Assembly (NCBI GenBank): GCA_016195265.1
Contig: JACPZW010000074.1
Location: forward strand, 29,651-93,650
Reading direction: 5' to 3'
Length of the DNA stretch: 64,000 bases
Origin: Acidobacteriota bacterium
Lineage (GTDB): Bacteria; Acidobacteriota; Vicinamibacteria; Vicinamibacterales; CAVVIG01
Shown: in pieces, positions 29,821 to 52,173 of the stretch
Layout of the letters: each line of letters begins with the position of its first letter
Numbering within the stretch: position 1 is the stretch's first letter
Translations under genes and position numbers: made by a program
The notes under the pieces: generated by a model
Database searches by the model: none
What the model saw: the letters and a program-made list of their open reading frames with translations, nothing else
Told to the model about the DNA's origin: nothing

Positions 29821-29826
29821 CCTGCC

Positions 29827-30648: not shown

Positions 30649-30883
30649 GCCGGCGCGATCGAGCAGCGGGGATGTTATTGAGCCGGAGGTAGACGCGCAA
30701 CTGGCCGCGGTGGTGGATCACGTGATTCATGACGAAGCTGCGGACGCAGGCGGCGCGCGGCATCGACCACGATTTCGCGTGCGGCTTCCAGCCCAGTGTG
30801 TCGTCGGACACGCGTTCCAGAACGCGTCGGGTGGTGGCCATTTCCTGATCGAATTCCGGGAGAAGTGCGTCGGTGATCGCCAT
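30623..30883 (-). pseudogene. DinB-family (four-helix bundle) protein remnant
   Basis: The N-terminus LLPEFDQEMATTRRVLERVSDDTLGWKPH is joined directly to the C-terminal HHRGQLRVYLRL motif, so the middle is missing and the tail is out of frame. Confidence 0.6.
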
Positions 30884-30885
30884 GC

Positions 30886-30977
30886 TCAGCTCCTTTTAGC
30901 TTTTAGCTTTCAGCTCTCAGCTTTCGGCTCTCAGTTTTAAGTTTTCTGTTTTCAGTTTCAGTTTTCAGTTTCAGTCC
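30886..30977. repeat. direct 6-7-nt-period tract (AGCTYTC / CAGTTTT)
   Basis: tcagctccttttagcttttagctttcagctctcagctttcggctctcagttttaagttttctgttttcagtttcagttttcagtttcag. Confidence 0.8.
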
Positions 30978-31303
30978 GCTATCGCATCAATGAACCAGCC
31001 GTGCCCGGCGCGATCCCGGCCATTCCATGGATCGAGCCCTGCCTGTTGGGCGTCGTCTTGCTGCGGCGCGCCGGCGATGAGCAACAGTGACGGAGGCGGC
31101 CGAACACCGGTTGCAGCGGACGGCGCTTCGCGCCGCCGCTGAGCCGGAGCGTCATGGCCGCACGCGAGAATTGGTCGCGACGTTCAATCACGACGTCGGT
31201 GCGTTATGCGAGTACCTTCGCGAGAGACAGCGCGAGCACAGCGGCCGTGTGGTAACCCGTGAGCCGCGTCGCCCGGAGGTCCTAGAAGCTCCGGAGAAAT
31301 GAT

Positions 31304-33620: not shown

Positions 33621-34343
33621 TTACGGCACGACGCCGCGGAGGCTCGTATCCACGCGCGTGCCCGCGTAGAGCGCCGAAAAGACCTGGTCGGCCACGTTGC
33701 GCTCGTCCGGCGCGCGACGGCGCTTGAGCGTGGGATCGTCGGGAAATTGCTCGGCGCCGCGCGCCCAGGCGTCGCGGGCCTTGGCCGGGTCCTCGAGCCG
33801 CCAATATCCGTCGCCGAGCGATACGTAGACGCGCGCCAGCAGAAGGGCGGGCGTGTCGGGTGTGACCAGCGTCAGCGCCCGGTTCAAATCCCCGATGCCG
33901 CGCGGGATGCGCTTGAAGATGAAGTTGTTGTAGTAGAGATTCACGACGCCGCGGACGTAGTACGCGAGCACCGACGGCTTGAGCTCGATGGACTTCGTCA
34001 GGCTGTCCATGGCGTCGCGCCCGAGATAGAGCCGGCGGATGTCGCCGGCGACGGGCACCTTGTCCACGCAGGCGAGCGCGTGGCTGATCAGGATGTTCGG
34101 GCCCCTCCCCTTGCGCTTGGACAGCCGCTCGAGCGTGTCGATCGCGCGGTCGAACTGGCTCGAGGCAATCGCCAGCTGCCGGTAGTCCGCGGCCACCCGC
34201 AGGTTCTCGGGATTGGCCGCCACCGCCTGCTCGAACTCCGCGAGCTTCACGAGATCGGCGCGTCCGGCCTGCGCCGTCAACACCGCGCCCCCGCACACGC
34301 ACGCCAGCAGAGCGGGAACCAGCCGCGCCCGGCGTCTCCGCAT
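33621..34343 (-). CDS. TPR-like lipoprotein
   Basis: MRRRRARLVPALLACVCGG (lipobox LLAC) followed by helical-repeat-like sequence. Its ATG overlaps the upstream barrel's TGA by 1 nt (TGATG). The track merges it into an 820-aa ORF whose upstream part is a shadow frame. Confidence 0.7.
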   Translation of the reverse strand: MRRRRARLVPALLACVCGGAVLTAQAGRADLVKLAEFEQAVAANPENLRVAADYRQLAIASSQFDRAIDTLERLSKRKGRGPNILISHALACVDKVPVAGDIRRLYLGRDAMDSLTKSIELKPSVLAYYVRGVVNLYYNNFIFKRIPRGIGDLNRALTLVTPDTPALLLARVYVSLGDGYWRLEDPAKARDAWARGAEQFPDDPTLKRRRAPDERNVADQVFSALYAGTRVDTSLRGVVP

Positions 34344-36817
34344 CAGCGCTCGAACCGTAGCTGCAGCCGGAACTGACGGTACTCGGAGTTGTAGAACGTG
34401 CCGAACGCCGGCGAGCTGATGTTGGCCTGCACGTCCACCGGGTTGAAGGACGCGAGGGCGTTGTAGGCCCGAATGCCGATCCACGGGGCAAGCTTGAAGA
34501 TATGAAAGCGGTGCTCGAGGCCCAGATCGAGATGGAACCGGTTCGGCAGGCGATAGCTGTTCCGCGGTCCGACGAAGTCGAGGGCGTCGTTGACGATCGA
34601 ATACGGCAGGCCCGTCCGCCAGTCGAGAATGCCGATGACCAGCCAGCGCGGCGACGGCATCAGGTGGCCGCGCGCGAACAGCCGGTGCGGCACGTCCGTC
34701 GTCGCGGGACCGGATTGGTTCGGTCCGATGATGGGCCACATCATCGTGTCGAAATACCGCGCGAACGCGTTGAGGTCGCTCTCGGCGAACGCGCGGGAGT
34801 ACGACACGTTCAGGTCGGCCGCCGGCGATCGCGCGTAGTGAATGCCCGCTTCGAGCGCGCGGTACACCGCTTCGCCCGAGCTGTCGAGCAGCAGCTGCCC
34901 GACGCCGGCGCGCTGCAGCGTATCGACGATGAGCTCGTGGCCGTCGCGGCGCTCGAGCAGGCCGGCGTGGACGGACCAGCGGGCCGTCCAGCGATGGTCG
35001 TACGAGATGTCCCACGTCCGGCTGCGCGCCGTCCGCAGCTCGGGGTCGGTCACGTGCGTGAACGGCACCTGCGAGAGCAGGCTGGCGCCGTCCGCGGCGA
35101 AGCGCGAGTCGACGAACGTCTCGAACTGCGCGAACGCGCCCGCCGCCGACGGCGTACGTTCGAAGAACAGGCCGTAGCCGCCACGCAGAACTTCGCTGCC
35201 CGACGCGTTCAGCAGCAGCGCCGCGCCGACGCGCGGTGTCAGGTTCCACCGAGCGACCACGCCGTCGCGGTCGAGCCGGGCGCCGTACTCGAGGTACCAC
35301 CGCGTGGACGGCTGCCAGCGGTCCTGCGCGAAGATCGCCAGGTCCGTGCTGCCGAGCTGCTGCGCGGTCGCCGGACTGAAGTCGAGCCGGCGCGACAGCG
35401 TTCCGTCGGGCCGCCGGATCAGCACCGGGCGGCTCGCGCTCATCCCGTCGTAGCCGTTGACCAGCACGTCGATGCCGCCCTTGTACAAGTGCAGGCCGCC
35501 CGACGCGGTCGCGGCCGACCCCGCAATCGTCTGGATCCACTGGAAGGTGGACAGCGCGCGGCTCTGCGTGTTGTAGAAATTTCCGAGCGTGGTGTCCGGG
35601 TACAGCTGCATCAGCGCGGCGCCCTGCCCCGCCAAATCCGTGCGCGACGCGCGCCACTGCACGGTGGACTCGCCGATGAGCCGATCGGTCCACAGCGCGC
35701 GCTCGGTCAGCGAGACGTGCTTCACGCGCTCGCGGAGGTTGACCGCGGCCTCCGGCGGCGTGAACGTGCCGAGTGACGCGTAGTCGCTGACGCTCGGAAA
35801 CAGCCCGACATGGCCGATGAGCGAATGGCGCGCCGTGATATTCGCGTCCACGCGCGAGAACGAGCTCAGCCAGTGCGTGGTCTGCAGCTCGTTCTGCGGG
35901 CGGCTCGGTACGTCGTCGCTGCTGTAGCGGTACTGACCGGTCTGTTCGAGGAAGAGCTTGTTCGGAATGATCGGCCCGCCCGTCTCGACGCGGGGGCCGA
36001 AGCCGGCGATGCCCTGGACGTTCCAGTCCTCCTGGCGTTTGGTCCGGAACGTCGGATCGAGATTGTTCAGCCGCAACCGCCACTGATCGCCGGCCCTGCG
36101 CGTCTGGATGACGACCAGGCCCGACGCGAACCGCCCGTACTCGACCGCGTACGGATTCGGCAGCACCGACACCGAATCGATCGCATCGTCGGGCAGCGTC
36201 AGGTGCACGAGGCCCATGCCCGGATCCGCGAGCGTCGTCGCGCCGATCTGCACGCCCGACTGCGTCGGCCGTCCACCTTTGATGCTCATCCCGCCCGGCA
36301 CTTCGATCACGGTGGCGAGCAGGCGCATCGCGGCGCCCAGCCCGCCGCCGGGCGCCAGCTTGTCCGTTTCCTTGTCGCTGATCGTGTCCGCCTTGGCGAG
36401 CGTGTCGCCGCTCGACACGATCGACCGCGGCGCGACGACGTCGACCGTGTCGGTCAGCGTGGCAATGGCGAGGTCGATCAGCACGGTGGTCGACCTGCCG
36501 GCCACGACGGTCGCACTGAGGGCGATCGCCGTGAACCCTTCGAGCGAGGCCACGACGCTGTATTTGCCTTCGGGGATCCCGTCGGCCCGGTAGCGGCCGT
36601 CGCCTTCGCTCACCAGCGACGCGACTTCGCGATTGACGGCAAAGATGACGATCTTCACGCCCGGCAACACGACGGTCCCGTTGAGCGTCGTGACGACGCC
36701 TTCAATCGAACCCGCCACGTCCTGTGCCTGCGCGCGCGCGGCGCTTGCGCACACCACGGCCACGGCCAGCACCACGGCCGGGACGAAGCGCCGCGGGAGT
36801 CCAGACCGTAGCTTCAC
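34343..36817 (-). CDS. outer-membrane CarboxypepD_reg / plug / beta-barrel protein (Oar-like TonB-dependent transporter family), paralog 1
   Basis: Signal peptide, CarboxypepD_reg region (GVVTTLNGTVVLPGVKIVI...GRYRADGIPEGKY), plug (SIKGGRPTQSGVQIG...LPNPYAVEYGRFASGLVVIQTRRA) and about 550 aa of barrel ending in LRFER. Confidence 0.85.
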   Translation of the reverse strand: MKLRSGLPRRFVPAVVLAVAVVCASAARAQAQDVAGSIEGVVTTLNGTVVLPGVKIVIFAVNREVASLVSEGDGRYRADGIPEGKYSVVASLEGFTAIALSATVVAGRSTTVLIDLAIATLTDTVDVVAPRSIVSSGDTLAKADTISDKETDKLAPGGGLGAAMRLLATVIEVPGGMSIKGGRPTQSGVQIGATTLADPGMGLVHLTLPDDAIDSVSVLPNPYAVEYGRFASGLVVIQTRRAGDQWRLRLNNLDPTFRTKRQEDWNVQGIAGFGPRVETGGPIIPNKLFLEQTGQYRYSSDDVPSRPQNELQTTHWLSSFSRVDANITARHSLIGHVGLFPSVSDYASLGTFTPPEAAVNLRERVKHVSLTERALWTDRLIGESTVQWRASRTDLAGQGAALMQLYPDTTLGNFYNTQSRALSTFQWIQTIAGSAATASGGLHLYKGGIDVLVNGYDGMSASRPVLIRRPDGTLSRRLDFSPATAQQLGSTDLAIFAQDRWQPSTRWYLEYGARLDRDGVVARWNLTPRVGAALLLNASGSEVLRGGYGLFFERTPSAAGAFAQFETFVDSRFAADGASLLSQVPFTHVTDPELRTARSRTWDISYDHRWTARWSVHAGLLERRDGHELIVDTLQRAGVGQLLLDSSGEAVYRALEAGIHYARSPAADLNVSYSRAFAESDLNAFARYFDTMMWPIIGPNQSGPATTDVPHRLFARGHLMPSPRWLVIGILDWRTGLPYSIVNDALDFVGPRNSYRLPNRFHLDLGLEHRFHIFKLAPWIGIRAYNALASFNPVDVQANISSPAFGTFYNSEYRQFRLQLRFER

Positions 36818-36851: not shown

Positions 36852-37448
36852 CTACGCCGAGTGGGTTTTCAAGGTGGCGCGCGCCCGAAAGCGCGCAGTC
36901 AGTTCGGTCGGCGACGGATCGACCCGGCCAATCCCAGGCTGATTGCCGCGCTCCACGTCCACGACGAGCATCGCGGGCCCGCGTGTGGAAAACCATGATT
37001 GCAGCGCGCCGGCCAGCGCGTGTTCGTCGCGCACGCGGACGACGGAGCGGTACCCCGCGGCGCGCGCGACGGCGTCGAGCGGCACGCGGTCTGAAATCGT
37101 CCGCTGATCGCCGGTCGATCCGTGCGCGGCGTTGTCGAAGACGATGTGATAGAAGTTCGCCGGCGCGGCGGCCGCGACGCTGCCGAGCGTGCCCATGTTC
37201 ATCAGCACGTTACCGTCGCCGTCGAAGACGACGACCGTGCGCGCCGGCTGGACGATCGCGAGCCCGAGTCCAATCGACGAGGCGAGGCCCATCGAGCCGA
37301 TCATGTAGAACCGCGACGGTGTGTCGGCATGCGCGTACAGCTCGCGCCCGATCATGCCGTTGCAGACGACGGTCAGGCAGTCCGGTCCGTTCGCGGCCGC
37401 GGCATCCACGGCATCGGCCGCGCGCGCGACCGCATAGGCGCGCGTCAC
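36852..37448 (-). CDS. phosphonopyruvate/sulfopyruvate decarboxylase family, beta (TPP-binding) subunit
   Basis: GSMGLASSIGLGLA...VFDGDGNVLMNMG (the GDG-X-N TPP motif). The GTG start overlaps the alpha-subunit TGA (GTGA). Confidence 0.8.
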   Translation of the reverse strand: MTRAYAVARAADAVDAAAANGPDCLTVVCNGMIGRELYAHADTPSRFYMIGSMGLASSIGLGLAIVQPARTVVVFDGDGNVLMNMGTLGSVAAAAPANFYHIVFDNAAHGSTGDQRTISDRVPLDAVARAAGYRSVVRVRDEHALAGALQSWFSTRGPAMLVVDVERGNQPGIGRVDPSPTELTARFRARATLKTHSA

Positions 37449-37951
37449 GACTGCAGCCTGCCCTTTCCGACGACGAGCGCGACGGGCCTGCGCGTCTCGT
37501 GCATGGTGCACGTGAGGCGGTCAATGTCCGGTGCAAGGGTCGGCGGCTCGAACACGGCGAACGGGATCCGCAGCAATTGCAGCAACGGCGTCATCACATC
37601 GCCCATGATGAGGTGCTCGGGCGCGTCATTGCCGCTTTTGCCGCCCTCGCCGCGCCAGCTGATCACGAGCAGCGCCGGGATGTCGTAGATCTGGTGCAGC
37701 GAGACGAGCGCGTTCATGCTGACGCCGAGCCCGCTGTTCTGCATGAAGACGACCGGCTGCCGGCCGCCGAGGTATGCGCCGGCCGCGATTCCCAACGCGG
37801 AGTCCTCGCGCACGGCGCTGAGGTAGCCGTAGCGCGGCTCGGCGTCGAGGATGCGCGTCACGCCCTCGAAGAGCGAGCACGGAACGCCCGTGAAGTAGTT
37901 GTAGCCGTGCTGTTCGAGCAGGTCGAGGAACCGCCGCGAAGGACTAGCCAA
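37445..37951 (-). CDS. phosphonopyruvate/sulfopyruvate decarboxylase family, alpha (pyrimidine-binding) subunit
   Basis: FLDLLEQHGYNYFTGVPCSLF...REDSALGIAAGAYLGG...FMQNSGLG. The proposed TTG start at 37951 overlaps the upstream gene's end by 8 nt. Confidence 0.75.
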   Translation of the reverse strand: MASPSRRFLDLLEQHGYNYFTGVPCSLFEGVTRILDAEPRYGYLSAVREDSALGIAAGAYLGGRQPVVFMQNSGLGVSMNALVSLHQIYDIPALLVISWRGEGGKSGNDAPEHLIMGDVMTPLLQLLRIPFAVFEPPTLAPDIDRLTCTMHETRRPVALVVGKGRLQS

Positions 37952-39623
37952 CTTCGGTCCACGCCCGGCGGTAGTCGTCGAACGTATCGACTTCGAGCCA
38001 GCCCTGGTAGATGCCGACCGAGCCGACCGCATGGCCGCGCCGGATGACCTCGTGCAGCAGGTCGGTGAGCTTCGCCGTCCGCAGCGACGGCGACTCGTGC
38101 ACCGGGGCGGACTCGCCGCGGTCGCGCAACTCGCGATAGACCTCGCCGAGGATCTGGCACCCGCGCGCCGACAGCTTCGCCATGCCGATGAACTCGGCGG
38201 TCGCCTGGCCCGCGTCGAGCCCCTGCCCGATCGCCGTGATCCGCACGGGCTGATCGTCGGCGAGGAAGCGGTGGTGGCGCCGCGGCGTGGGCGTCTCGAT
38301 CACGAGGTCGGCGGATGCGCCCTCGCGCGTCGCGCGCGTGTCCGGCCACGAGCGATCGCAGACGAGCGCGATGTCCTCGTCGGACTGCAGCAGCCGGTCC
38401 AGGATGTTCTTGTCGAACAGAATGTCGCCGTACATCACGATCACCGCGCCGGACAGCTCCGCGCCCGCGCGCAGCAGGCTCTCGAGCTCGCCGCTCTCCT
38501 CGAACGCGTCGTTGTCGTAATAGCGGACGTTGGGGATGGTGATCTGTTCTTTCTTGTAGCCGCGCACGACGGCGATCGGGCGGACGCCGGCCTGCTGCAG
38601 CGCGTCCACCTGGCGCTCGAGGATCGGCTTCCCTTTGACTTCGAGCATCGCCTTCGGCCGATCCGCGACGAGCGGCATCAGCCGGCGGTCGAAGCCCGCG
38701 GCCAGAATCACCGCCTTGACCGTCTCGGCGTCGGCCGGCAAGTATTCTTTCTCGTCGGCCTTCATCTGCGCGAGGTTCACGAGCCGGTAGACCTCGGCGA
38801 GCGGCACGATGCGATCCTCGACCGCGGACGCGCGTCCGGTCTCGCGAATCGTCTTCAGGGCATCCTGCGCCGCGCGAATCGCCGCGCGCATGCCCTGGTT
38901 CGCGAAGATCATCATCTTGAAGCCGGCGCGCGCCAGCTCGTCCACGCTCGCGTCGTTGTAGGTCGTCGGCACGCAGACGAGCGGCGTCAGGCGATCCCAT
39001 TCGGCCGCGAACTGCGCGATCTCGTCCATCGTGTGGTGCTTGGAGTGGATCAACACGGCGTCGGCGCCCGCGTCGGCGTACGCGCGGCCGCGGCGCAGCG
39101 CTTCCTCCATGCCCAAGCCGGCGATCAGTGCTTCGGTGCGCGCGACGATCACGAGCTCGCCGGCGGCGGCGTCGACGGCCGACGTGATCTTCAGGACCTG
39201 CTCGTCGGTGTCGGTGAGCAGGCGCTTCACGCCGCCGTAGAAACTGCAGCGCTTCGGAAAGACGTTGTCTTCGATGCAGATGCTGGCGATGCCGGCGGCG
39301 GCGAACGCGCGCACGGTCCGGATCGCGTTGATCGAGTTGCCGAAACCCGTGTCGCAATCGGCCATCACCGGGAGGCTGGTCGCCTCGTTCATGATCTGCG
39401 CGGCGTGGAGCGTCTCGGTCATCGTGAGGATGCTCGCGTCCGGCACGGCGTAGCTCGCGCTGATCTCGAAGCCGCTCGCCCAGACCGCGTCGTACCCGGC
39501 TTCCTCGACGATCCGCGCCGTCAGCCCGTCGTGCGCGCCGCCGAGCACGATCGGCCCGGGCCTGGCGAGCAGCCGGCGGAGCGCCGCAGCTTTCGAGAGA
39601 AGCGGTGAAGAACGTTTCGTCAT
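37944..39623 (-). CDS. PEP-mutase-like (isocitrate lyase/PEP mutase superfamily) domain fused to a C-terminal LicC/PntC-like nucleotidyltransferase
   Basis: The N-terminal 290 aa include GAHDGLTARIVEEAGYDAVWASGFE, DCDTGFG, ICIEDNVFPKRCSF and LIHSK. The C-terminal 260 aa include AVILAAGFDRRLMPLVADRPKAMLEV...GWLEVDTFDDY. The start is MTKRSSPLL at 39623. Confidence 0.85.
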   Translation of the reverse strand: MTKRSSPLLSKAAALRRLLARPGPIVLGGAHDGLTARIVEEAGYDAVWASGFEISASYAVPDASILTMTETLHAAQIMNEATSLPVMADCDTGFGNSINAIRTVRAFAAAGIASICIEDNVFPKRCSFYGGVKRLLTDTDEQVLKITSAVDAAAGELVIVARTEALIAGLGMEEALRRGRAYADAGADAVLIHSKHHTMDEIAQFAAEWDRLTPLVCVPTTYNDASVDELARAGFKMMIFANQGMRAAIRAAQDALKTIRETGRASAVEDRIVPLAEVYRLVNLAQMKADEKEYLPADAETVKAVILAAGFDRRLMPLVADRPKAMLEVKGKPILERQVDALQQAGVRPIAVVRGYKKEQITIPNVRYYDNDAFEESGELESLLRAGAELSGAVIVMYGDILFDKNILDRLLQSDEDIALVCDRSWPDTRATREGASADLVIETPTPRRHHRFLADDQPVRITAIGQGLDAGQATAEFIGMAKLSARGCQILGEVYRELRDRGESAPVHESPSLRTAKLTDLLHEVIRRGHAVGSVGIYQGWLEVDTFDDYRRAWTEVG

Positions 39624-39675
39624 GGATTCGACGATACCACAGTCACGCCGCGATAAAGTTAAAGTACGTGCCACC

Positions 39676-40785
39676 GTGCTGATACAACCTGTCCGGGGAC
39701 GCCGCGCGTTCCGCGAGTTCATCAATTACGCCTACGAGAGAAACGCCGCCGATCCGCACTGGATTCCTCCGCTGCGGCTCTCCGAACACGAGCGGCTGAA
39801 GCCGTCCAAGAACCCGTTCTTCGCGCACGCCGACGTCGAGCTGTTTCTCGTCCGCCGCGACAACGGCGTGGTCGGGCGCATCGCGGCCATCGACGATCGG
39901 CTGCACGAAAAGACACACGGCGACCAGACGGCGATGTTCGGGTTCTTCGAAGCGGCGGACGCCGAGGCCGCGCGCGCGCTGCTGGCCACGGTCGAACGGT
40001 GGGCGGCGGCGCGCGGCCGCCGGCGCGTGCGCGGACCGATCAATCCGTCGCTCAACGAAAGTTGCGGCCTGCTGATCGACGGCTTCGACACAGACTCGAT
40101 GCTGCTGATGCCGCACAATCCGCCGGAGTACGCCGCGTTTATCGAGTCTGCGGGCTACGCCAAGGGGATGGATCTCTACGCCTGGCTGTACGAGATCGCG
40201 GCGCAACCGCCCGAGGTCATCGCGCGGCTCGCGGCGCGCCTGCGCGAGCGGCTGCAGCTGGTCCTGCGTCCGCTGAAGCTGTCCGAGTTCACGGCCGAGG
40301 TCGAACGCCTGCGCGACATCTACTGCGGCGCGTGGGAGCACAACTGGGGATTCGTGCCGCCGACGCGGGAGGAATTCCAGCGACTCGCCACCGAGCTCAA
40401 GCCGATCTTCGATACGCGCGCCGCCGTCGTCGCCGAATCGAACGGCCGGATGGTGGCCTGCGCCGTGGCGGTGCCCGACATCAACCAGGCGCTCAAGGGG
40501 ACGAGCGGCCGGCTGTTCCCGAGCGCGCTGTTCCGGCTGCTGCTGCGCCACCGCTACATCGACCAGGCGCGGCTGCTGCTGCTCGGCGTCGCGCCCGAGT
40601 TCCGCACGCGCGGCCTCTACCCGCTGCTGATGTTCGAATTGCACCGCCAGATCGCGGGCGGACCCTACAAGCGGATGGAGTTCTCGTGGGTGCTCGAGCA
40701 CAACCGCGACATCAACCAGCCCGCCGAACAAGCCGGCGCGCGCCGCTACAAGACCTACCGCATCTACGAGAAGCTCCTCGGTTGA
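39676..40785 (+). CDS. GNAT-like N-acyltransferase family protein (candidate ceramide-synthase-type step)
   Basis: About 370 aa, including FREFINYAYERNAADPHWIPPLR...GFFEA...RGPINPS...LLLGVAPEFRTRGLY (acyl-CoA N-acyltransferase fold features). The start is uncertain: the track ATG at 39622 overlaps the divergent pepM-like ATG, so the GTG at 39676 is preferred. Confidence 0.65.
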   Translation: MLIQPVRGRRAFREFINYAYERNAADPHWIPPLRLSEHERLKPSKNPFFAHADVELFLVRRDNGVVGRIAAIDDRLHEKTHGDQTAMFGFFEAADAEAARALLATVERWAAARGRRRVRGPINPSLNESCGLLIDGFDTDSMLLMPHNPPEYAAFIESAGYAKGMDLYAWLYEIAAQPPEVIARLAARLRERLQLVLRPLKLSEFTAEVERLRDIYCGAWEHNWGFVPPTREEFQRLATELKPIFDTRAAVVAESNGRMVACAVAVPDINQALKGTSGRLFPSALFRLLLRHRYIDQARLLLLGVAPEFRTRGLYPLLMFELHRQIAGGPYKRMEFSWVLEHNRDINQPAEQAGARRYKTYRIYEKLLG

Positions 40786-41073
40786 ACCACAGAGGACACC
40801 GAGGACACGGAGAGAATGTGAATAGCCACGGAGCCACGAAGACACAGAGGTGTTCGACGCGGCGCCGCGAAGCGGCGGGCCTGGCAGTCAGCGAGCCGCG
40901 CGAGCGACAGCGGACCGATTAGATGCCTGTCGTTCGCACGGCTCGCTGACTGCCTGACACGCGGCCTGGTCCGCAGGCCGCCCGCGTCGAACACGATCCG
41001 TGGAGTCTCGCTTCTCCGTGCCTCTGCGACTCTGTGGCTAATTTCCCTCCGTGTCCTCCGCGTCCTCCGTGGT
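40786..41073. repeat. 288-bp nested palindromic element, copy 1
   Basis: The termini ACCACAGAGGACACCGAGGACACGGAG / CTCCGTGTCCTCCGCGTCCTCCGTGGT are inverted. Inner arms are GTGTTCGACGCGG / CGCGTCGAACAC, and a central 16-bp perfect stem is GGCAGTCAGCGAGCCG / CGGCTCGCTGACTGCC. Confidence 0.9.
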
Positions 41074-41132
41074 TGACGCTCTTTCTTCTTCTTCCGAGAT
41101 TTCTGCGCGTTCCGTGTTGATCGTCGTCAGTC

Positions 41133-43601
41133 CTATCGCTCGAACCGGAACTGCAGCCGGACGCCGCGGTTGTCCGAGTTGTAGAACGTGCCGTACGACG
41201 GCGCGCTGGTGTTGGACTGGACGTCCGCCGGCAGGAACGCGCCGAGGATGTTGGTCACGCGGATGCCGATCCACGGCTGGAACCGCAGCACCTTGATCCG
41301 CCGCTCGAGGCCGAGCTCCAGCCGTGCCGCATCCGGAAAACGCTGCGCGTTGCGCGGCTCGACGAAGTCCAGCATCTCGTTGACGGTCGAGTACGGCACG
41401 CCCGTCCGCCAGTCGAATACCCCGAGCAACAGCCAGCGGGGCGCCGGCATCAGGCGGCCCCGCACGAACAGCCGGTGCGGCACGTCGGCGTTCAGCGGCC
41501 CGTACGCATTGGCGCCGATGACCGGCGCGAGCACGGTGTCGAAGAAATTCGTGAGCGCGTTCAGGTCGCCCTGCGCCGACGACCGCACGTACGACACGTC
41601 GACGTCGGCGGAGGCCCCGCGCGTGAAGTGCACGCCGACTTCGCCGTCGCGGTAACTCGACGCGCCGCCGCTCGAGAGCGTGAGCGCGGCGCCCGTCGGC
41701 GTCGCCGACGGCGTCACGATCAGCTCCTGCCGCCCCTCGCGCTGGAGATACGCCGCGCGGAACGCCCAGCGCGCGTTCAACCGGTACTCGTAGCCGACGT
41801 CCCACGTCCGGCTCCGCGGCGTCTCGAGGTTCGGCGCCGCGATCCGCGCCACGCGCACGGCAGGGCCGAGGGGCGTGCGGCCGTCCGCGGCGAACCGCCG
41901 GTCCGTCTCGCGCTCGAACGTCTCGAACGCGCCGGCGACCGCCGGCGTGCGCTCGTAGAACAGGCCCCAGCCGCCGCGCAGGACGGAGCTGCCTGACTCA
42001 CTCAGAAGCACGGCCGTTCCAAGGCGCGGCGACACATTGACCCGGCCGAGAATCCCGTCGCGATCGAGACGGCCGCCGGCTTCGACGTACCAGCGCGGGC
42101 GCAGCTGCAGCCGATCCTGCGCGAACACCGCCGCTTCGGTGCTCCCCACCGACTGACTCGTGGCGGCGTCGAAGTCGATGCGCCGCGCGGTCGTGCCGTC
42201 ACCGCGGTCGATCACAACCGACCGGCTCTCGCTCGTGCCGTCGTACTCTAGGCGAATCACGTCCAGGCCGACCTTGAACAGGTGCACGCCGCCCAGGCCG
42301 TCGCGGTCCGTCGTCACGACACTGACGAGCTGGTACGCCGTGGAGTTGCGGTGCTGACTGTTGAAGAAGTTGCCCAGCGTCGTATCCGGCTGCAGCTCCA
42401 TCGGCGCGGTCCCCTGGGGAACCACGTCCGTGCGCGACTGGAAGAACTGGATCGTCGTCTCGCTGACCGTCTTGCCGGTCCACATCGCGCGTTCGGTGAC
42501 GGCCGCCTGCGTGGCGAATGTGTGGAAGTCGATCGACGCGTCCGGCGGAATGAACGTACCGAGCGTCGCAAATGTCGACTGGCTCGGGAACACCCCGACG
42601 GTCGCGCCGAGCATGTGCCGCCGCGAGACGTTCGCGTCGACGCGCGTGAACGAGCTCATCGACGTCGAGACGCGCTCCTCGTCCGGGGGCCGGCTCGGCA
42701 CTTCCCCGCGGCTGTAGCGGAATTGTCCGGTCTGTTCGACAAACAGTTTGTCCTCGATCACCGGTCCGCCCGTTGCGAACCGCGGGCCCCACGCGTCGAT
42801 GTGCGTGAAGCTGAAGGGCTGGTCACGCCGGTTGCGGAACGTCGGACCGAAGCGGTTGATCCGGAACTTCCACTGATCCTTCGCGCGCCGCGTCTGGATC
42901 ACGACGAGGCCCGACGCGAACCGGCCGTACTCGACGGCATAGGGGTTCGGCAGCACCGTGACCGAATCGATCGCATCGTCGGGCAGCGCCACCTGCGCGA
43001 TCGCGGACGCGGGATCCACGACCGACGCCGCGCCCAGCTGTACGCCCGACTGGTTCGGGCGCCCGCCTTTGATGCTGACGCTGCCGTTCGGCAGCGTGAT
43101 GGCAGTTGAGAGCATCCGGACGGCGCCCTGAAAACCCGCGCCCGGCACGAACTGATCGAGCTCGCGGCTGGCAATCGCTTCCACCGTCGCCAGCGTGTTG
43201 CCGCTCGAGACGGCGGTCGTCGTCCCGACGACGTCGATCGTGTCGGAGAGCGTACCGATCGGCAGATCGACCATGACGTGCGCGGGATCGCGGTCGCTGA
43301 CGACGGCGGACTCCAGCACCGTCTCGAAGCCCTCCAGCACCGCCATCACGCGGTACGTGCCGGTCACCAGGCCGCCGACGCGAAAGCGGCCGTCGCCGTC
43401 GCTCACCACGGTCGCGACAATCCGGCCGGTCGCGTCGATGACGAACACGCTGGCGCCGCCGAGCGGCGTCGTGTGCTGCGTCGAGATCGCGCCTTCAATG
43501 GCGCCGAGCGGCACCTGTGCCGCTGCGAGGGCCGAAGATGCGGCGAGCAGCGCGGCGACCAGCAATGGATGATGCCACCGGACGCGGCGCATCACTCTCA
43601 T
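41133..43601 (-). CDS. outer-membrane CarboxypepD_reg / plug / beta-barrel protein (Oar-like TonB-dependent transporter family), paralog 2
   Basis: Same architecture as 34343..36817, with long identical peptides (LPNPYAVEYGRFASGLVVIQTRRA). It ends in FRFER. The start MRVMRRVRWHHPLLVAALLAASSALAAAQ at 43601 overlaps the upstream TGA (ATGA). The track ORF extends spuriously to 43922. Confidence 0.85.
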   Translation of the reverse strand: MRVMRRVRWHHPLLVAALLAASSALAAAQVPLGAIEGAISTQHTTPLGGASVFVIDATGRIVATVVSDGDGRFRVGGLVTGTYRVMAVLEGFETVLESAVVSDRDPAHVMVDLPIGTLSDTIDVVGTTTAVSSGNTLATVEAIASRELDQFVPGAGFQGAVRMLSTAITLPNGSVSIKGGRPNQSGVQLGAASVVDPASAIAQVALPDDAIDSVTVLPNPYAVEYGRFASGLVVIQTRRAKDQWKFRINRFGPTFRNRRDQPFSFTHIDAWGPRFATGGPVIEDKLFVEQTGQFRYSRGEVPSRPPDEERVSTSMSSFTRVDANVSRRHMLGATVGVFPSQSTFATLGTFIPPDASIDFHTFATQAAVTERAMWTGKTVSETTIQFFQSRTDVVPQGTAPMELQPDTTLGNFFNSQHRNSTAYQLVSVVTTDRDGLGGVHLFKVGLDVIRLEYDGTSESRSVVIDRGDGTTARRIDFDAATSQSVGSTEAAVFAQDRLQLRPRWYVEAGGRLDRDGILGRVNVSPRLGTAVLLSESGSSVLRGGWGLFYERTPAVAGAFETFERETDRRFAADGRTPLGPAVRVARIAAPNLETPRSRTWDVGYEYRLNARWAFRAAYLQREGRQELIVTPSATPTGAALTLSSGGASSYRDGEVGVHFTRGASADVDVSYVRSSAQGDLNALTNFFDTVLAPVIGANAYGPLNADVPHRLFVRGRLMPAPRWLLLGVFDWRTGVPYSTVNEMLDFVEPRNAQRFPDAARLELGLERRIKVLRFQPWIGIRVTNILGAFLPADVQSNTSAPSYGTFYNSDNRGVRLQFRFER

Positions 43602-44368
43602 TCTGCGCTCCGCGACGCCTGAAGCCTCGGCCAGACGTCGTCCCTTACGCGGGCCAAGTGCTGCTCGTCGTCGACTTCGCCCCACAGCAGATCGGGCACG
43701 AACACCGCGCCAATGGCGCGCTCGGCGGCGATGGCGACCAAGGCATCGGTCTCGTAGTCCATGCGCTCGTGGCCGCACCGGTCCACGAACGCGGTGAACG
43801 CCCGCTGCATCGCCTGCGCGCCCGCGGCCGACAGGCGCGTGATGCCGACGAATTCTCCGGTGATGCTCGGCAGGTCGGCGGCGCGCTTGCTCATCGACCG
43901 CAGCCGGCCGTTGGGCGCGCATACCCAGACTTCATCGCCGGCCCCGGTCGGACCTGAAAGGAGCGTCGCGTCCGGGAACGAAGGCGACGAGAGGATCGCC
44001 GTCACGGCTCTCGCTTCATACACGATGTCGCTTTCGAGCACGAGGACGCCGCCGGCGCGATCGCCCGTGGAGACGGCGTCGAGCGCCCGCGCGAGCGACG
44101 CCATGCTGCCGGACGAGGCGTACCGCTCGTTCAGGACGGTCCGCACCCCAGGCCGCCCGGCCGCAAACCGCTCGTACTGATCGGCGCAGTACCCCGCGAC
44201 GATGGTCACCTCGGAGATACCCGCGTCGCCCAGGACGTGGACTGACCGGCCGACGAGCGTCTCGCCGTCGATCTCGATCAAGCCCTTCGGCCGCGCGTCC
44301 ACGATGGATCGGAGGCGCGTGCCCATGCCCGCGGCCAGAATGATCGCACGGCTGTCACGCGCGGCCAA
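43598..44368 (-). CDS. LicC/PntC-like nucleotidyltransferase (stand-alone)
   Basis: AIILAAGMGTRL...RPKGLIEI...WGEVDDEQHL. The TTG start lies 11 nt upstream of the phnW-like stop. Confidence 0.85.
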   Translation of the reverse strand: MAARDSRAIILAAGMGTRLRSIVDARPKGLIEIDGETLVGRSVHVLGDAGISEVTIVAGYCADQYERFAAGRPGVRTVLNERYASSGSMASLARALDAVSTGDRAGGVLVLESDIVYEARAVTAILSSPSFPDATLLSGPTGAGDEVWVCAPNGRLRSMSKRAADLPSITGEFVGITRLSAAGAQAMQRAFTAFVDRCGHERMDYETDALVAIAAERAIGAVFVPDLLWGEVDDEQHLARVRDDVWPRLQASRSAE

Positions 44369-45437
44369 TCGCCGCTCCCAGGCACTCGACGAAACGCCGG
44401 TAGTCCTCCTCGCGCACGTCGCCCATGGTCGCGACGCGGAACAACGAGGCCGCCAGGGGCCCCTGCCCCGCGTAAATGACGAAGCCGTCGCGCTTCAGCG
44501 CGTCGTGGAGCGCGGGATAGCCGAGCTGGCGCGGCAGCGAGATCGCGGTCAGCGTCGTGGAGCGCAGCGCCGGCGGCAGCAGCAGATCGAGACCGAGCGC
44601 CGCGACGCCGTCGCGGACGATCGCCGCCGCGCGGCCGTACCGGGCGACGCGGCCGTCCACGGTCTCGTCGATGAGCTCGTCGAGCGCGGCGCGCAGGGCG
44701 TAGGCGATCTGCACGGCCGGCGTGAAGGGCGTCGATCGCTTTTCCTGCTCGTCGTGATGCCGCGGCAGGTGCAGATACAGCGTGCGCTCGGGGTAGCCGC
44801 GCATGGCGTCCATGAACTCGCGCTTGACCAGGGCGAACGACAGGCCCGGCAGTCCCTGCACGCACTTGTTCGCGGTGCACACGACGGCGTCGGGCGCCAG
44901 CCGCGCGAAGTCGAACGCCTCGCCCGCCAGCGCGCTGACGGCGTCCACCAGCAGACGCGTGCCCTTCAGCTTGCAGAGCGCGGCGATTGGCGCGAGCTCG
45001 TTGAGCAGACCCGTCGTCGTCTCATGGTGCACGATCGCCAGCGCATCGTAGCGCGTGTGGGCGAGGCGCAGCGCCAGCGCGTCGATGGCCGGGCGTTCCG
45101 TCGGCGCGCACGCCACGACCTCGTGCTCGATGCCGTGCGCGCGCGCGATCCGCGCGATCCGCTCGCCATAGACACCGTTCTGGACGACCAGCAGCCGCCC
45201 GCCGGCCGGCACGGCGGAACTCGTCATGGCTTCCACCATCGCGGTGCCGCTGCCGGTCAGCAGCACCGACGTGTACTCGCCGCGCGGCGTGCGAAACGCT
45301 TCGAGCAGGCGCCGGCGGATGCCGTCCTGCAAATCGAAGAACTCGGGCTCGCGGTGACAGAGATCGGGACCGGCGAGCGCGTCGCGGACGCGCGGGCTGA
45401 CGTTCACCGGACCCGGATTGAGCAGGATGGTCCTCAT
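44355..45437 (-). CDS. phnW: 2-aminoethylphosphonate:pyruvate aminotransferase-like class V aminotransferase
   Basis: LLNPGPVNVSPRVRDAL, and CTANKCVQGLPGLSF (PLP lysine context as in PhnW). Confidence 0.8.
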   Translation of the reverse strand: MRTILLNPGPVNVSPRVRDALAGPDLCHREPEFFDLQDGIRRRLLEAFRTPRGEYTSVLLTGSGTAMVEAMTSSAVPAGGRLLVVQNGVYGERIARIARAHGIEHEVVACAPTERPAIDALALRLAHTRYDALAIVHHETTTGLLNELAPIAALCKLKGTRLLVDAVSALAGEAFDFARLAPDAVVCTANKCVQGLPGLSFALVKREFMDAMRGYPERTLYLHLPRHHDEQEKRSTPFTPAVQIAYALRAALDELIDETVDGRVARYGRAAAIVRDGVAALGLDLLLPPALRSTTLTAISLPRQLGYPALHDALKRDGFVIYAGQGPLAASLFRVATMGDVREEDYRRFVECLGAAIGRA

Positions 45438-45474
45438 TCGAGGGCACCCGGCGACGCAGAGCCCGCGGGCAGGT

Positions 45475-45754
45475 GGTCACGAAGACACGAAGACACGAAG
45501 AAGAAAAAAGAAGAATGGGCCACAGAGTCACAGAGACACAGAGGTGTTCGACACGGCGCCGCGAAGCGGCGTCCGTCGGCTGAAAACCGGCGTCGCAAAC
45601 GACTGGGTCTCTCGTGCTCGTCGCTTGCGAAGCCGGTTTCCGGCCGACCAGCGCGGCCTGCTCCGCAGGCCGCCCGCGTCGAACACGATCTACGGAATCT
45701 CGATCTCCGTGCCTCGGTGTCTCTGTGGCCTATTTCCCTCTGTGTCCTCCGTGG
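45475..45754. repeat. 280-bp nested palindromic element, copy 2 (same orientation as copy 1)
   Basis: It shares with copy 1 the segments CACAGAGGTGTTCGAC(G/A)CGGCGCCGCGAAGCGGCG and CGCGGCCTG(G/C)TCCGCAGGCCGCCCGCGTCGAACACGATC...CTCCGTGCCTC...CTCTGTGGC..TATTTCCCTC.GTGTCCTCC. The central about 90 bp differs but is again self-complementary. Confidence 0.9.
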
Positions 45755-45843
45755 CATTATCTGTTCCGCGTTTTCGGCGAGTTCTGTGTCGACCGTCGTT
45801 CGTCCCGAATCATCGTGCCCAGGCTACTAGTATCACACGCGCG

Positions 45844-46635
45844 TCAGACGCCGATCGCCAGAACGAGCGCCCAGATCGCCAGCGCGAGCGCGGCGCCCGC
45901 GACGACGTCCACGGTGTAGTGGTAGCGGCCGGCCACGCACGCGACGCTGATGCTCGCGGCGAGCGCGAACAGGATCGCGCCCGTCCACGGCATCGCCCCG
46001 GCGACGGCCATCGCGACCGCGAGCGAGCCGGCCACGTGTCCGCTCGGAAACGTGTTCGCGCCGATCGTGAACGTGCTGACCATCTGCGACGCCATCTGGT
46101 GGATCGCGCGTTCGCGCTGGCTCGACGGCCGCTCGATCGCCCAGGGCGGGCGCGTCTGAATGACGCTGAGCGGCGCAAACGCCCCGAATTCGGCGGCGAT
46201 GACCATCGTCCAGTAGTGATCCGCCATCGCGCCGCGGCCCGTCCACAGCAGCGCGGCGAAGCCGGCGGGAATCAGCAGAAAGCAGCCGACGTAGACGATT
46301 TCCAGGTACGCCAGCACCACGCGCGGCCAGTGCGCGAACCGCGTCGTCGGATCCCCCAGCAGCCGGTGATCCCACGCCATCAGCCACGCTTCGAACGACG
46401 GGGACGAGCCGACGAAGAACCGGCCCGACACCCAGTAGCCGACGAGGATCATGATCGCCGGCGCCCAGTCGCGCACCATCGGGCCCGCGCCGCGCGGCAG
46501 GATCCAGATCCCGGCGCCCATGGCGACGCCGACGATCGTGACTTGCGCGCGGCGCGACGCGGGCAGCGGCCTGAGCCACGCCGCCGCCGCCATCACACCG
46601 AAATATCCCGCCGCGAGCCCCTCCGAAAAACGCAC
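45844..46635 (-). CDS. PAP2_C / sphingomyelin-synthase-like phospho-headgroup transferase (polytopic membrane protein)
   Basis: Multiple TM segments, with FPSGH (46036..46050) and RYHYTVDV (45904..45927) matching the SMS/IPC-synthase D3/D4 motifs (SGH, HYTxDV). The start is uncertain (46635 GTG, 46593 ATG or 46689 ATG). Confidence 0.75.
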   Translation of the reverse strand: MRFSEGLAAGYFGVMAAAAWLRPLPASRRAQVTIVGVAMGAGIWILPRGAGPMVRDWAPAIMILVGYWVSGRFFVGSSPSFEAWLMAWDHRLLGDPTTRFAHWPRVVLAYLEIVYVGCFLLIPAGFAALLWTGRGAMADHYWTMVIAAEFGAFAPLSVIQTRPPWAIERPSSQRERAIHQMASQMVSTFTIGANTFPSGHVAGSLAVAMAVAGAMPWTGAILFALAASISVACVAGRYHYTVDVVAGAALALAIWALVLAIGV

Positions 46636-46669
46636 GGTATCGACCTCTCGTGATGCTAACGTATGTCGC

Positions 46670-47635
46670 GTGTCCACCGCCGCGTACACCCGCGTCGAGT
46701 ACGCCGAGCCGCACGTCGCGCGCGGGCGTCAGATTCTCGCGGCGCATCCGGAACTGCGCGCCCTCGCGGGACCGCGGGCGGCGAGCGCGGTGTGGATCGT
46801 GGTGCTCGTGACGGTGCAGATCGCCCTAGCCGTCGCGCTCGGGAATCAATCGTGGCACATCTGGCTGCCGCTGGCCTACCTCGCGGGCGCCACGATCGAT
46901 CACGCACTGTGGGCGCTCATTCACGAGTGCGCCCACAATCTCATCTTCGGCGCGCGGCTCGGCAATCGCGCCGCGGCGCTCACCGCGAATCTGCCGCTGG
47001 TCTTTCCCGCGGCCATGTCGTTCTGCAAGTACCACCTGCTCCACCATCGCCACATGGGCGAGATGGACCTCGACGCTGATCTCGCCGGCCCCGACGAAGC
47101 GCGGATGGTCGGCCGGTCGTCGTTGCTCAAGACCCTGTGGCTGGCGGCGTTCGTGCTCGTCGTCGGCACGCTGCGGCCCCGGCGTCTGACGCGCGTGCCG
47201 TTCGCGGATCGGTGGACGGCGATCAATATGGTGATTCAGGCGATTGCCGTCGCCGCGCTCGTCTGGTGGGCCGGCTGGGCGCCGCTGAAGTACCTCGTCG
47301 CCTCGTCGGTCCTCGCGATCGGCTTCCACCCGCTCGGCGCGCGGTGGATTCAGGAACATTACGTGTTCGCCCCCGGGCAGGAGACGTACTCCTACTACGG
47401 CCCGCTCAACCGCGTGTCGTTCAACGTGGGCTACCACAACGAGCATCACGATCTGGTGACGGTTCCCTGGTCCCAGCTCCCGCGGATCCGCGCCGGCGCG
47501 CCGGAATTCTACGACTCGCTGACGTCTCACGGCTCGTGGACGAAGCTGCTCGTCGCGTTTCTCCGGGACCGCGACGTGACGCTCTTCAGCCGCATCGTCC
47601 GTCCGCTGCGGGGCGAGCACGCGCGCGAGCCGTGA
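46670..47635 (+). CDS. sphingolipid delta4-desaturase (DEGS/DES1-like) fatty acid desaturase
   Basis: N-terminal Lipid_DES-like EPHVARGRQILAAHPELRAL and three His boxes (HECAHN, HLLHHRH, HNEHHD). The GTG start is at 46670. Confidence 0.85.
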   Translation: MSTAAYTRVEYAEPHVARGRQILAAHPELRALAGPRAASAVWIVVLVTVQIALAVALGNQSWHIWLPLAYLAGATIDHALWALIHECAHNLIFGARLGNRAAALTANLPLVFPAAMSFCKYHLLHHRHMGEMDLDADLAGPDEARMVGRSSLLKTLWLAAFVLVVGTLRPRRLTRVPFADRWTAINMVIQAIAVAALVWWAGWAPLKYLVASSVLAIGFHPLGARWIQEHYVFAPGQETYSYYGPLNRVSFNVGYHNEHHDLVTVPWSQLPRIRAGAPEFYDSLTSHGSWTKLLVAFLRDRDVTLFSRIVRPLRGEHAREP

Positions 47636-48594
47636 TCCGCCGGGTCGCGATCACGGGGGCGACCGGATTTATCGGCCGCCATCTGACGGCCGATCTCGCC
47701 TCCCGCGGCGTTGCCGTCCAGGCCATCCAGCGTCCCGAATCCCGACAGACGGCGCCTGAAGGCGCGACCGTCGTCCGCGCCGCGCTCGACGAGGGCGCAC
47801 TGCGGCCCGCGTTCGCCGGCGCCGACGCGGTCGTGCATCTGGCGGGCGTCGTCTCGTCGGCGCGCGCGCGCGACTTCGCCGACGTCAACGTCGCCGGCGC
47901 GCAGGCGGTCGCCCGCGCCGCGCGTGCGGCGGACGTGCCCGTGATTCACATCTCGAGCCTTGCCGCCGCCGGTCCGGCGTCGCCGGCGGCGCCGCGCGGC
48001 GAAGCAGATGCGCCTCGGCCCCTGACGCCCTATGGCAGAAGCAAACTCGAAGGCGAGCGCGCGCTGGCGGCGGAACGCGGTCTGCGCTGGACGATTCTGC
48101 GGCCCGGCGTCGTCTACGGGCCCGGCGATCGCGCCATGCTGCCGCTGTTCGCGTTCGCCCGACGCGGCGTCCTGCCGCTCGTCGGCCTGGCGACGGCGGC
48201 GTACACGTTCGTCTACGTCGACGATCTCGTGCGCGCGATTGTCGCCGCGCTGGAACAGCCTCCGCGGCAGGACACGCTTTTTGTCGGCCACCCGCAGCCG
48301 GTCGCCGCCCGCGCGCTGCTCGAGAACATCCGATCGATCGTGGGTGGCAGCGCCATCGTCGTGCCGATCCCGATGATCCTCACCCGCGCGGCGGCGGCTG
48401 CCGGGGATCTCGCCGGCGCGCTCACCGGCCGACCCATGACCATCAACAGCTCGCGCTACGCGGAACTGGCGTCGGAGGGGTTCGTGTGCAGGGTCGATCG
48501 GCTGCGCGAGCAGCTGGGAATCGTGGCTGAAGTGGATCTTGCGGAAGGCCTGACGCGGACCGCGGCATGGTACAAAAGTCGTGGATGGTTGTAA
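47632..48594 (+). CDS. NAD(P)-dependent epimerase/dehydratase-family SDR (candidate 3-keto-sphingoid/ceramide reductase)
   Basis: VAITGATGFIGRHL Rossmann motif and YGRSK catalytic Y-x3-K. The GTG start overlaps the desaturase TGA (GTGA). Confidence 0.8.
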   Translation: MIRRVAITGATGFIGRHLTADLASRGVAVQAIQRPESRQTAPEGATVVRAALDEGALRPAFAGADAVVHLAGVVSSARARDFADVNVAGAQAVARAARAADVPVIHISSLAAAGPASPAAPRGEADAPRPLTPYGRSKLEGERALAAERGLRWTILRPGVVYGPGDRAMLPLFAFARRGVLPLVGLATAAYTFVYVDDLVRAIVAALEQPPRQDTLFVGHPQPVAARALLENIRSIVGGSAIVVPIPMILTRAAAAAGDLAGALTGRPMTINSSRYAELASEGFVCRVDRLREQLGIVAEVDLAEGLTRTAAWYKSRGWL

Positions 48595-48673
48595 TTCAGA
48601 TTTCAGAGTTCAGAGTTCAGATTGATTGCAGATTGGATTCAGAATCTTAAATCTGAACTCTGAAATCTGAAAT
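48595..48673. terminator. palindromic TCTGAAA-family tract filling the gap between convergent genes (probable bidirectional terminator)
   Basis: ttcagatttcagagttcagagttcagatt ... aatctgaactctgaaatctgaaat. The two halves are reverse complements and occupy the entire intergenic space. Confidence 0.55.
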
Positions 48674-49879: not shown

Positions 49880-49905
49880 CAGCCCTTTGCTCTCTGCCCT
49901 CAGCC

Positions 49906-52172: not shown

Positions 52173-52173
52173 C

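Follow-up and report, generated by a model that had tools for sequence, protein, structure and literature searches.

We describe four intergenic palindromic elements, E1 to E4, in a stretch of 64,000 nucleotides (hereafter, the window) from the genome of an Acidobacteriota bacterium (GenBank assembly GCA_016195265.1, contig JACPZW010000074.1, positions 29,651 to 93,650; all coordinates below count from the first letter of the window). In the explanation that we favor with moderate confidence, these elements, non-coding palindromes of a soil acidobacterium resembling Vicinamibacteria, make up one modular repeat family of low copy number, of the kind represented by repetitive extragenic palindromic (REP) sequences, miniature inverted-repeat transposable elements (MITEs), and enterobacterial repetitive intergenic consensus (ERIC) sequences. 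The family is real and previously undescribed, and a literature search by sequence and by topic found nothing on this motif. The family is distinguished by arms made of tandem arrays, a conserved four-way core in which one paired stem is hypervariable, flips of its nested layers, transfer of flanking DNA together with the palindrome, and a low copy number. Most of what is known about dispersed palindromic repeats comes from proteobacteria and firmicutes; for Acidobacteria, a largely uncultured group that abounds in soil, hardly any have to our knowledge been described.

A preliminary description, made from the letters of the window, had proposed four members, and all four are present where it placed them. 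E1 (17850–17884) is an arms-only mini-hairpin with a 12-bp stem (ACCACGGAGGAC/GTCCTCCGTGGT), in agreement with its description as termini only; E2 (26523–26607) is an 85-bp palindrome with 9-bp termini (ACCACGGAG/CTCCGTGGT) and inner stems of its own; and E3 (40786–41073, 288 bp) and E4 (45475–45754, 280 bp) are nested palindromes. The 12-mer ACCACGGAGGAC, counted as exact or with one mismatch, occurs seven times in the window, and all seven occurrences are at the ends of E1–E4, with an expectation by chance of about 0.008 for the exact 12-mer in 128 kb, i.e., on both strands (2 × 64000/4^12). The inner inverted arms GTGTTCGACRCGG, which had been noted as common to the long copies, have exactly four exact matches in the window, solely within E3 and E4. 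The element ends read ACCACGGAGG.../...CCTCCGTGGT, and across the family the elements measure 35–288 bp and their arms are 9–32 nt long and 88–100% complementary. The G+C content of the window is 67%, and open reading frames (ORFs) picked by third-position G+C place E1–E4 between genes, as had been claimed for all copies; ORFs that cross the elements showed the wrong third-position pattern in a coding-capacity check.

The long elements are built in layers. The arms are tandem arrays of 8–9 nt units, such as CACGGAGGA, CACAGAGA, and CACGAAGA. In E3 and E4, the outer arms, with termini ACCAC.../...GTGGT, enclose an inner pair of array arms with termini GCCAC.../...GTGGC; next come a small asymmetric "bulge" hairpin on one side only, and P2, a perfect 13-bp stem at the base of a four-way junction whose other three branches are hairpin A (GCGGCCTGC..GCAGGCCGC), a variable stem of about 38 bp, and hairpin C (CGCCGC-TTC-GCGGCG). 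E1 corresponds to the outer layer alone, and E2 to the outer layer enclosing its own interior. In E3, the left arms occupy 40786–40849 (outer array of 9-nt units, 40786–40816; middle array of 8-nt units, 40824–40849), the core 40850–40994 (P2, 40850–40862 and 40982–40994; C, 40863–40877; variable stem, about 40878–40960; A, 40961–40981), and the right arms 40995–41073 (bulge mini-hairpin at about 40995–41017, then the middle array, an internal loop, and the outer array at 41046–41073). The core of E4 is at 45544–45686 (P2, 45544–45556 and 45674–45686; C, 45557–45571; variable stem, 45572–45652; A, 45653–45673). A non-palindromic flank of about 60 nt, here called ext, is found on one side of E3 (41074–41131, minus strand; GACGACGATCAACACGGAAC..., with an A-rich end) and of E4 (45755–45831, minus strand), and it also accompanies the palindrome at L069, one of the related loci from metagenome-assembled genomes (MAGs), metagenomes, and viral contigs that are numbered L001 to L162.

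The long copies had been said to share a left and a right block, and both are present: a left block of 53 nt, recovered by a repeat search, that is 91% identical between E3 and E4 (40825–40877 and 45519–45571), and a right part of about 100 nt. Within E3, the repeat search gave outer arms of 32 nt (88% complementary) and central arms of 39 nt (85% complementary). The central regions of E3 and E4 are only 42% identical, and each forms a stem of about 38 bp; the description of these regions as unrelated yet self-complementary is thus retained, but the structure around them is a four-way junction and not one hairpin. When RNA folding was carried out, both long copies folded far better than shuffled sequence on either strand (z scores of −8 to −16). 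The values for the plus and minus strands were −190 and −214 kcal/mol in E3 (z = −13.4 and −15.9) and −152 and −166 kcal/mol in E4 (z = −8.3 and −11.1). For E2, z was about −5 on both strands, and for E1 it was −5 to −6; E3 folded as DNA gave z = −12.

Further copies of the core are few. The two-sided exact pattern of the core matched one true locus among 185,579 species genomes, L001, in an Acidobacteria MAG (GCA_016195295). A one-sided 19-mer of the core matched at least 120 loci in metagenomes; among the matches listed, nearly all were coding (the inspected L040 is an NHL-repeat protein encoding ..VFDAGG..), and L021, L057, and L069 were true elements. Look-ups anchored on neighboring proteins added L124–L126 (GCA_020073005) at the site orthologous to E3. 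L162 has a reduced core at the same site, in which the core interior is gone and a bare P2 hairpin remains. A covariance-model search of the window and 36 loci found no further cores, and its matches L040 and L038 were coding. The core was not matched in a plasmid collection, nor was the core pattern matched in viral contigs. A 157-nt palindrome in a MAG labelled uncultured Rubrivivax (L002, 2961–3117; 31.8 bits with the covariance model) was considered as a member and then set aside; it shares with the core the exact 13-nt pair GTGTTCGACGCGG/CCGCGTCGAACAC and nothing else, which may be due to chance or to a distant relationship.

Alignment of the seven distinct cores (E3, E4, and five from related MAGs and metagenomes) shows a conserved module beside a stem that varies only in its sequence. 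The module of P2, A, and C averages 92% identity across the copies, and the variable hairpin is 54% identical yet 89–95% paired. In the model-fitted alignment, 93.6% of the cells were paired, and 18 of 56 pairs had changed on both sides; shuffled controls gave 7.4 ± 2.0 such pairs, with 0 of 500 reaching 18, and slid controls gave 1–7. After the register of one row was corrected, 94.9% of the cells were paired and the number of pairs changed on both sides rose to 22 of 56. In L124, three P2 pairs are altered on both sides and pairing is kept. Because the changes on both sides exceed those in the shuffles across seven cores, the fold is conserved where the sequence is not, which the preliminary description had proposed from the two window copies and which now extends beyond them; the weight of these counts is limited in that they come from seven related sequences in a fitted alignment.

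Comparison with relatives indicated that these elements come and go. The relatives carry PAP2 or RluA proteins 78–91% identical to those of the window and are labelled Acidobacteriia or Vicinamibacterales. At the E4 site, L123, L124–L127, and L162 have no element: their PAP2 and aminotransferase genes overlap or leave a gap of 30 nt, and the whole insertion in the window, measured against these empty sites, is about 380 nt (about 45452–45831). The E2 site is empty in L128–L131, where 20–50 nt separate the two gene starts and the flanks align up to AGTCT | CATGCC, giving an insertion of about 172 nt (26481–26652). The extents first given for the palindromes were therefore right as coordinates of the palindromes, but the inserted DNA at E2 and E4 exceeds them. 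At the E3 site, the palindrome is absent in L123 and L127, and the site is filled in L124–L126 and L162. Based on the filled and empty states at E2 and E4 and of the E3 palindrome, we conclude that elements have been gained and lost. At the site orthologous to E1 (L130:12104–12142), there is a hairpin whose stem matches that of E1 and whose loop does not, and another arms-only hairpin is found between dinB and dnaE2 of a relative (L128:3771–3849).

The behavior of ext shows that more than the palindrome is carried. It is present with E4 and with L069 at loci whose empty sites have none. L069 was dropped as an orthologue of E4 because the gene upstream of it is different, and the flank that it shares with E4 belongs to the element. 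L124 and L162 each contain a copy of ext that is internal and inverted. In L123 and L127, the E3 site retains an ext-like stretch alone (GACGACGATCAACGCCGAAC, one mismatch to the 17-mer motif), so that either ext is older than the palindrome or the palindrome was cleanly deleted. A perfect 10-nt palindrome, CGGAATTCCG, lies just ahead of the stop of the neighboring gene in the same two loci (L123:7095–7145 and L127:5995–6040). The idea that ext is a small ORF was rejected, as no frame or start is conserved among E3, E4, and L069.

The nested layers are also found in both orientations. When E4 was compared with L069 and L057, the arms aligned forward (scores 34–45 versus 15–25), as did the bulge and, for L069, ext, and the interior between the P2 repeats aligned as the reverse complement (72 and 66 versus 35 and 31). 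The flip in L069 and L057 was confirmed by the order C'-variable'-A' and by the complemented loops. At the orthologous E3 site, the order is A-variable-C in the window and reversed in L124, and in L162 the entire middle layer, including the bulge, is reversed relative to ext, so that this one site shows three states. The perfect repeats are 13 bp long and thus shorter than assembler k-mers, which makes an assembly artefact unlikely as the source of the flips. L161, assembled independently from the same strain, matches the window without a difference over 1434 nt that include E4, in the same orientation, and there is therefore no sign of mixed orientation in that population.

A gene that might move such elements was looked for in the window and at the related loci. 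Among about 45 window ORFs, Pfam analysis detected neither a transposase or recombinase nor an HUH enzyme or reverse transcriptase, in line with the earlier remark that the window holds no transposase, and none of these adjoins the other copies at the related loci examined. No Y1/HUH transposase gene was found in the 64 kb of the window and about 150 kb of related loci; neither the window nor the related loci yielded an insertion sequence that has these ends and could be the parent, and the arm motif in phages flanks no transposase.

In comparison with known systems, the elements have several properties of MITEs, namely terminal inverted repeats, small size, lack of coding capacity, and filled versus empty sites in relatives. 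The early suggestion of REP/MITE-like elements is thus upheld as far as dispersed palindromes with filled and empty sites are concerned, but identity as a strict MITE is unproven, given the lack of target duplication, the co-travelling ext, and the low copy number of the core. MITE-like palindromic intergenic repeats include ERIC/IRU in enterobacteria, Correia/NEMIS in Neisseria, and BOX/RUP in pneumococcus. Like these, the family described here is non-coding, measures between 35 and 300 bp, and has terminal inverted repeats that form long imperfect hairpins; it is intergenic and often co-transcribed, varies between strains in its presence at the same site, and is modular, with internal insertions and deletions giving size classes. 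Unlike them, it showed no target duplication, its arms are tandem arrays of 8–9 nt units, and its core has a low copy number. Its four-way-junction core with one hypervariable, always paired stem, the occurrence of the core and the middle layer in both orientations within the arms, and the co-carried flanking DNA are further differences. The likeness to REP sequences, to the bacterial interspersed mosaic elements (BIMEs) built from them and their RAYT transposases, and to the terminal-inverted-repeat families with TIRYT transposases is that extragenic palindromes are thought to be processed by HUH/Y1 enzymes whose genes lie elsewhere and which act on the folded single strand, with hairpin shape outweighing stem sequence. 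A REP is defined as a palindrome of 20–40 bp tagged by GTAG or CGTC at one end (PMC3733652). In contrast, the ends of the present elements carry neither tag, only E1 falls within 20–40 bp, the long copies are about 10 times the size of a REP, and no Y1 gene was found in the DNA examined. Acidobacteria encode RAYT-like "TIRYT" transposases, whose flanking inverted repeats can form repeat families (PMC3733652).

In our favored explanation, a dispersed family of palindromic repeats, the elements have been gained, lost, internally deleted, and flipped over the divergence of genomes whose proteins are still 78–91% identical, and they are therefore mobile or duplicative DNA and not fixed regulatory sites. 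They do not move by clean cut-and-paste at inverted ends, since the inserted DNA brings ext with it and shows no target duplication. Pairing would persist because folding is required of the element, whether as RNA or as DNA in hairpin or cruciform form, and a palindrome-correcting template switch at replication may help to keep it. Some factor whose gene lies elsewhere probably recognizes the surface formed by the conserved P2, A, and C. A hairpin-recognizing HUH enzyme of the TIRYT type is a lead for the mover and not a result. Where an element lies 3' of a gene and has a U-rich tail (E4, E3 on the plus strand, L001, and L162), it most likely acts also as a transcription terminator or 3' stabilizer.

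A more specific idea, which goes further and which we rate as rather unlikely, is that the four-way core, with its 13-bp stem, two invariant small hairpins, and pairing-constrained spacer stem, is a folded-DNA substrate of an HUH/TIRYT enzyme or a recombinase encoded elsewhere. The core would nest in the loops of array-hairpin terminators, and the two orientations of the core and the surrounding layer would be a trace of hairpin-mediated copying or inversion. If true, the core would represent a mobile module of a new kind, defined by its structure, in a lineage where array palindromes shape the intergenic DNA throughout. The flip/flop palindromes of parvoviruses offer an analogy only: they also have a long stem closing small hairpins and two orientations against an asymmetric flank. 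Unlike them, the elements described here are internal to a chromosome and not replicon ends, with no sign of hairpin-primed replication or a nicking protein. In any of these cases, orthologous sites in one small system show how a long palindrome is gained, lost, internally deleted, and inverted, with a recognition-like conserved module beside a stem that evolves only via paired changes. It is a natural case for asking what maintains the pairing (selection acting on RNA, selection acting on folded DNA, or the correction of palindromes in connection with replication) and which enzyme moves such elements.

Several observations weigh against the family of dispersed repeats as set out above, including the terminator role suggested for some copies. 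Target duplications were not found at the filled/empty junctions of E2, E3, or E4, nor was a clean common end. The core is rare, as the single two-sided match among species genomes shows, and the covariation comes from only seven distinct related cores in an alignment fitted to the model. The two copies known from the window are 4.7 kb apart in one gene cluster, so local duplication fits them as well as transposition does. At L021, and at the E1 orthologue in L130, it is the strand not transcribed that folds better. The core pairs include 10 G-U against 6 A-C, and there is thus no strand bias in the core. A simple consensus terminator scan called no element site. Finally, E2 lies between diverging gene starts, in a promoter region, where a terminator role makes no sense.

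The arms themselves raise a further objection, since they are not confined to the palindromes. The arm motif ACCACGGAGGACACGGAGG has 29 exact hits in IMG/VR viral contigs (L132–L160), where the arrays are single, unpaired, intergenic, and 2–4 units long, occur in both orientations, and have the same ACCAC boundary; they always begin at (T)TAACCAC, TTGACCAC, or TTCACCAC. Examples are L138:6644–6670, L137:9257–9283, and L144:8694–8729; in L138, a true phage, the start codon of the large-terminase gene follows 7 nt after the end of one array. The arm motifs were rejected as the ends of a larger phage transposon, as the intervening DNA encodes replication and packaging genes. Because the arm unit is a widespread intergenic motif, the view of it as a mere transposon end is weakened, and the arms may be a general intergenic signal instead of element ends.

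Among the alternatives to a dispersed repeat family, we consider first a structured non-coding RNA, either a cis-acting element (terminator, stabilizer, or RNase III site) or a small RNA gene, in which the compensatory changes would result from selection for the fold of the RNA. The strong covariation and the intergenic position of all copies, most of them 3' of a gene, are consistent with such an RNA. The transcribed strand folds better at E1, E4, and L057; within the window, the minus strand folds better in all four elements, and it is the transcribed strand at E1 and E4. On the transcribed strand of E4, a U-rich tract resembling a terminator tail (45500–45516, minus strand; UUCUUCUUUUUUCUUCUU) directly follows the middle hairpin, and such a tract is also found in L001 and L162. 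Judged by eye, a hairpin with an immediate U tract is present at E4 (−), E3 (+), L001 (−), and L162 (−), and not at E2 or L021. These sites, together with L128:3771–3849, resemble intrinsic bidirectional terminators in having, at gene 3' ends, a GC-rich hairpin that on the transcribed strand is preceded by an A-rich tract and followed by a U-rich one. Unlike such terminators, the stems are 10–20 times the usual length, branched, and repeated, and L021 has no U tract.

The other evidence makes a structured RNA an unlikely explanation of the family. The orientation of the core flips relative to the direction of transcription, the untranscribed strand is favored at the two loci mentioned above, and E2 sits between diverging starts. 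A promoter scan found no promoter-like site in or near the elements. The presence or absence of elements among close relatives argues against an essential RNA. No Rfam family was matched by the elements: only a tRNA (6300–6373) exceeded the gathering threshold in the window, and around E3 and E4 only generic miRNA-hairpin hits were obtained (15–38 bits against thresholds of 60–168 bits). Since the better-folding strand does not track transcription and the G-U and A-C counts give no bias, selection at the RNA level is not shown. Of the proposal that these are structured RNA modules, the kept fold and the U-rich tails at some sites stand, but the strand preference is mixed and the RNA role is unproven; such a role is probably a by-product at some sites and is not taken to explain the fold.

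It is similarly doubtful that the palindromes were made in place, by slippage forming the arrays and template switching causing inverted duplication, as a recurrent, palindrome-corrected product with neither mobility nor function. This origin would account for the roughly 12 unrelated arrays of 7–9 nt units in the window, several of them hairpins, for a further locus (14750–14945) with array arms around a branched GC-rich center, and for the gain in relatives of array hairpins and expansions with different units at orthologous spacers. The inverted ext copy in L124 and L162 is as expected of fold-back copying, mismatches are few, and G-U and A-C pairs are balanced in the core. On the other hand, P2, A, and C, at 92% identity, and the ACCAC terminus recur at unrelated loci and in different genomes, which independent local generation cannot give, and E4 and L069 carry ext where empty sites lack it.

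Least probable of the three, and in our judgment very unlikely, is an inverton, in which the 13-bp repeats are recombinase sites that flip the 117–119-bp interior and alter the expression of neighboring genes: perfect 13-bp inverted repeats are conserved across genomes, with L124 changed on both sides and pairing kept, and they bound a segment that, against the same asymmetric flanks, occurs either way round, at the orthologous E3 site as well, but no recombinase gene lies in the window or near the other copies, no internal promoter and no two orientations within one population (L161 matching the window) were found, flipping a nearly palindromic interior changes little, and the larger layer also flips in L162, which is better fitted by recombination or template switching between any inverted repeats. 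An attC site was rejected because P2 (GTTCGAC...GTCGAAC) has a polarity opposite to RYYYAAC...GTTRRRY and there are no cassettes and no integrase, and retron, ribozyme, and small-RNA readings were ruled out on anatomy and Rfam.

About a third of the intergenic spacers in the window hold an array of short units. Apart from E1–E4, about 12 intergenic arrays of 7–9 nt units have unrelated sequences, and several occur as inverted pairs that form hairpins. They are located at 7408–7461, 10662–10693, 11714–11746, 13278–13338, 19541–19581, 30485–30569, 30893–30974, 48578–48693, 53398–53453, 56094–56133, and 62851–62881, and their units are TGAGGATG, CCTCAGC, GGTTCAG, TGGTGAC, CAGCCCT, GAACTGA, CTTTCAG, TTCAGAG, ATCTGAA, TGGTGGC, and TACTCAAC. 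The locus at 14750–14945, in which (GGGTTCA)n and (TGAACCC)n arms enclose the GC-rich center (−106 kcal/mol, z = −5.6), has the architecture of E3 and E4 with an unrelated sequence. At the same spacers, relatives have different arrays or none: a (GGAAGAA)n/(CTTCTTC)n hairpin at L128:11240–11330 has no counterpart at about 25140–25160 of the window, and a (CAACGAC)n array at the 3' end of a radical-SAM gene has about 9 units in L128 (19250–19310) and 2–3 in the window (19500–19530) and L130. The intergenic arrays thus turn over fast. They resemble the heptamer arrays of cyanobacteria known as short tandemly repeated repetitive (STRR) sequences in having tandem units of 7–9 nt, a solely intergenic position, and many unrelated units per genome. 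Unlike STRR sequences, they are found in a different phylum and are often paired into hairpins, and one array type encloses a conserved core.

The genes around the elements differ from copy to copy. E1 lies between a small-subunit gene (17887–18534) and a GMC oxidoreductase gene (16259–17840), both on the minus strand, which agrees with its proposed position within a two-gene operon. E2 separates the diverging starts of an RluA gene (26479, minus strand) and a gene with a CarboxypepD_reg domain (26673, plus strand). E3 is flanked by converging genes, one encoding a 387-aa protein (stop at 40783–40785) and the other a TonB-dependent receptor (stop at 41133), and E4 by a class-V aminotransferase gene (44355–45437) and a PAP2 gene (45844–46689), both on the minus strand. 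Elements such as E4 split operons (here PAP2/aminotransferase) and can mislead gene callers and assemblers working on such MAGs.

Both long copies lie in a cluster at 36852–53403 that resembles a phosphonate/sphingolipid-type lipid pathway. It contains a phosphoenolpyruvate mutase, a split phosphonopyruvate-decarboxylase-like enzyme of the thiamine-pyrophosphate type, aminotransferases, nucleotidyltransferases, PAP2, a Lipid_DES-type desaturase, an epimerase, an acyl-AMP ligase, and a ketoacyl synthase. Two paralogous TonB-dependent receptor genes (34343–36817 and 41133–43922) are about 70–78% identical in DNA sequence and 6790 bp apart, and only the second has ext and the palindrome after its stop. 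In the region corresponding to 27800–31300 of the window, relatives have an imuA-like/imuB-like/dinB/dnaE2 cassette (L128:919–7455). The window holds in its place a 123-aa DNA_pol3_alpha fragment (29937–30308) among unannotated ORFs and 7-nt arrays, and the cassette looks degraded there.

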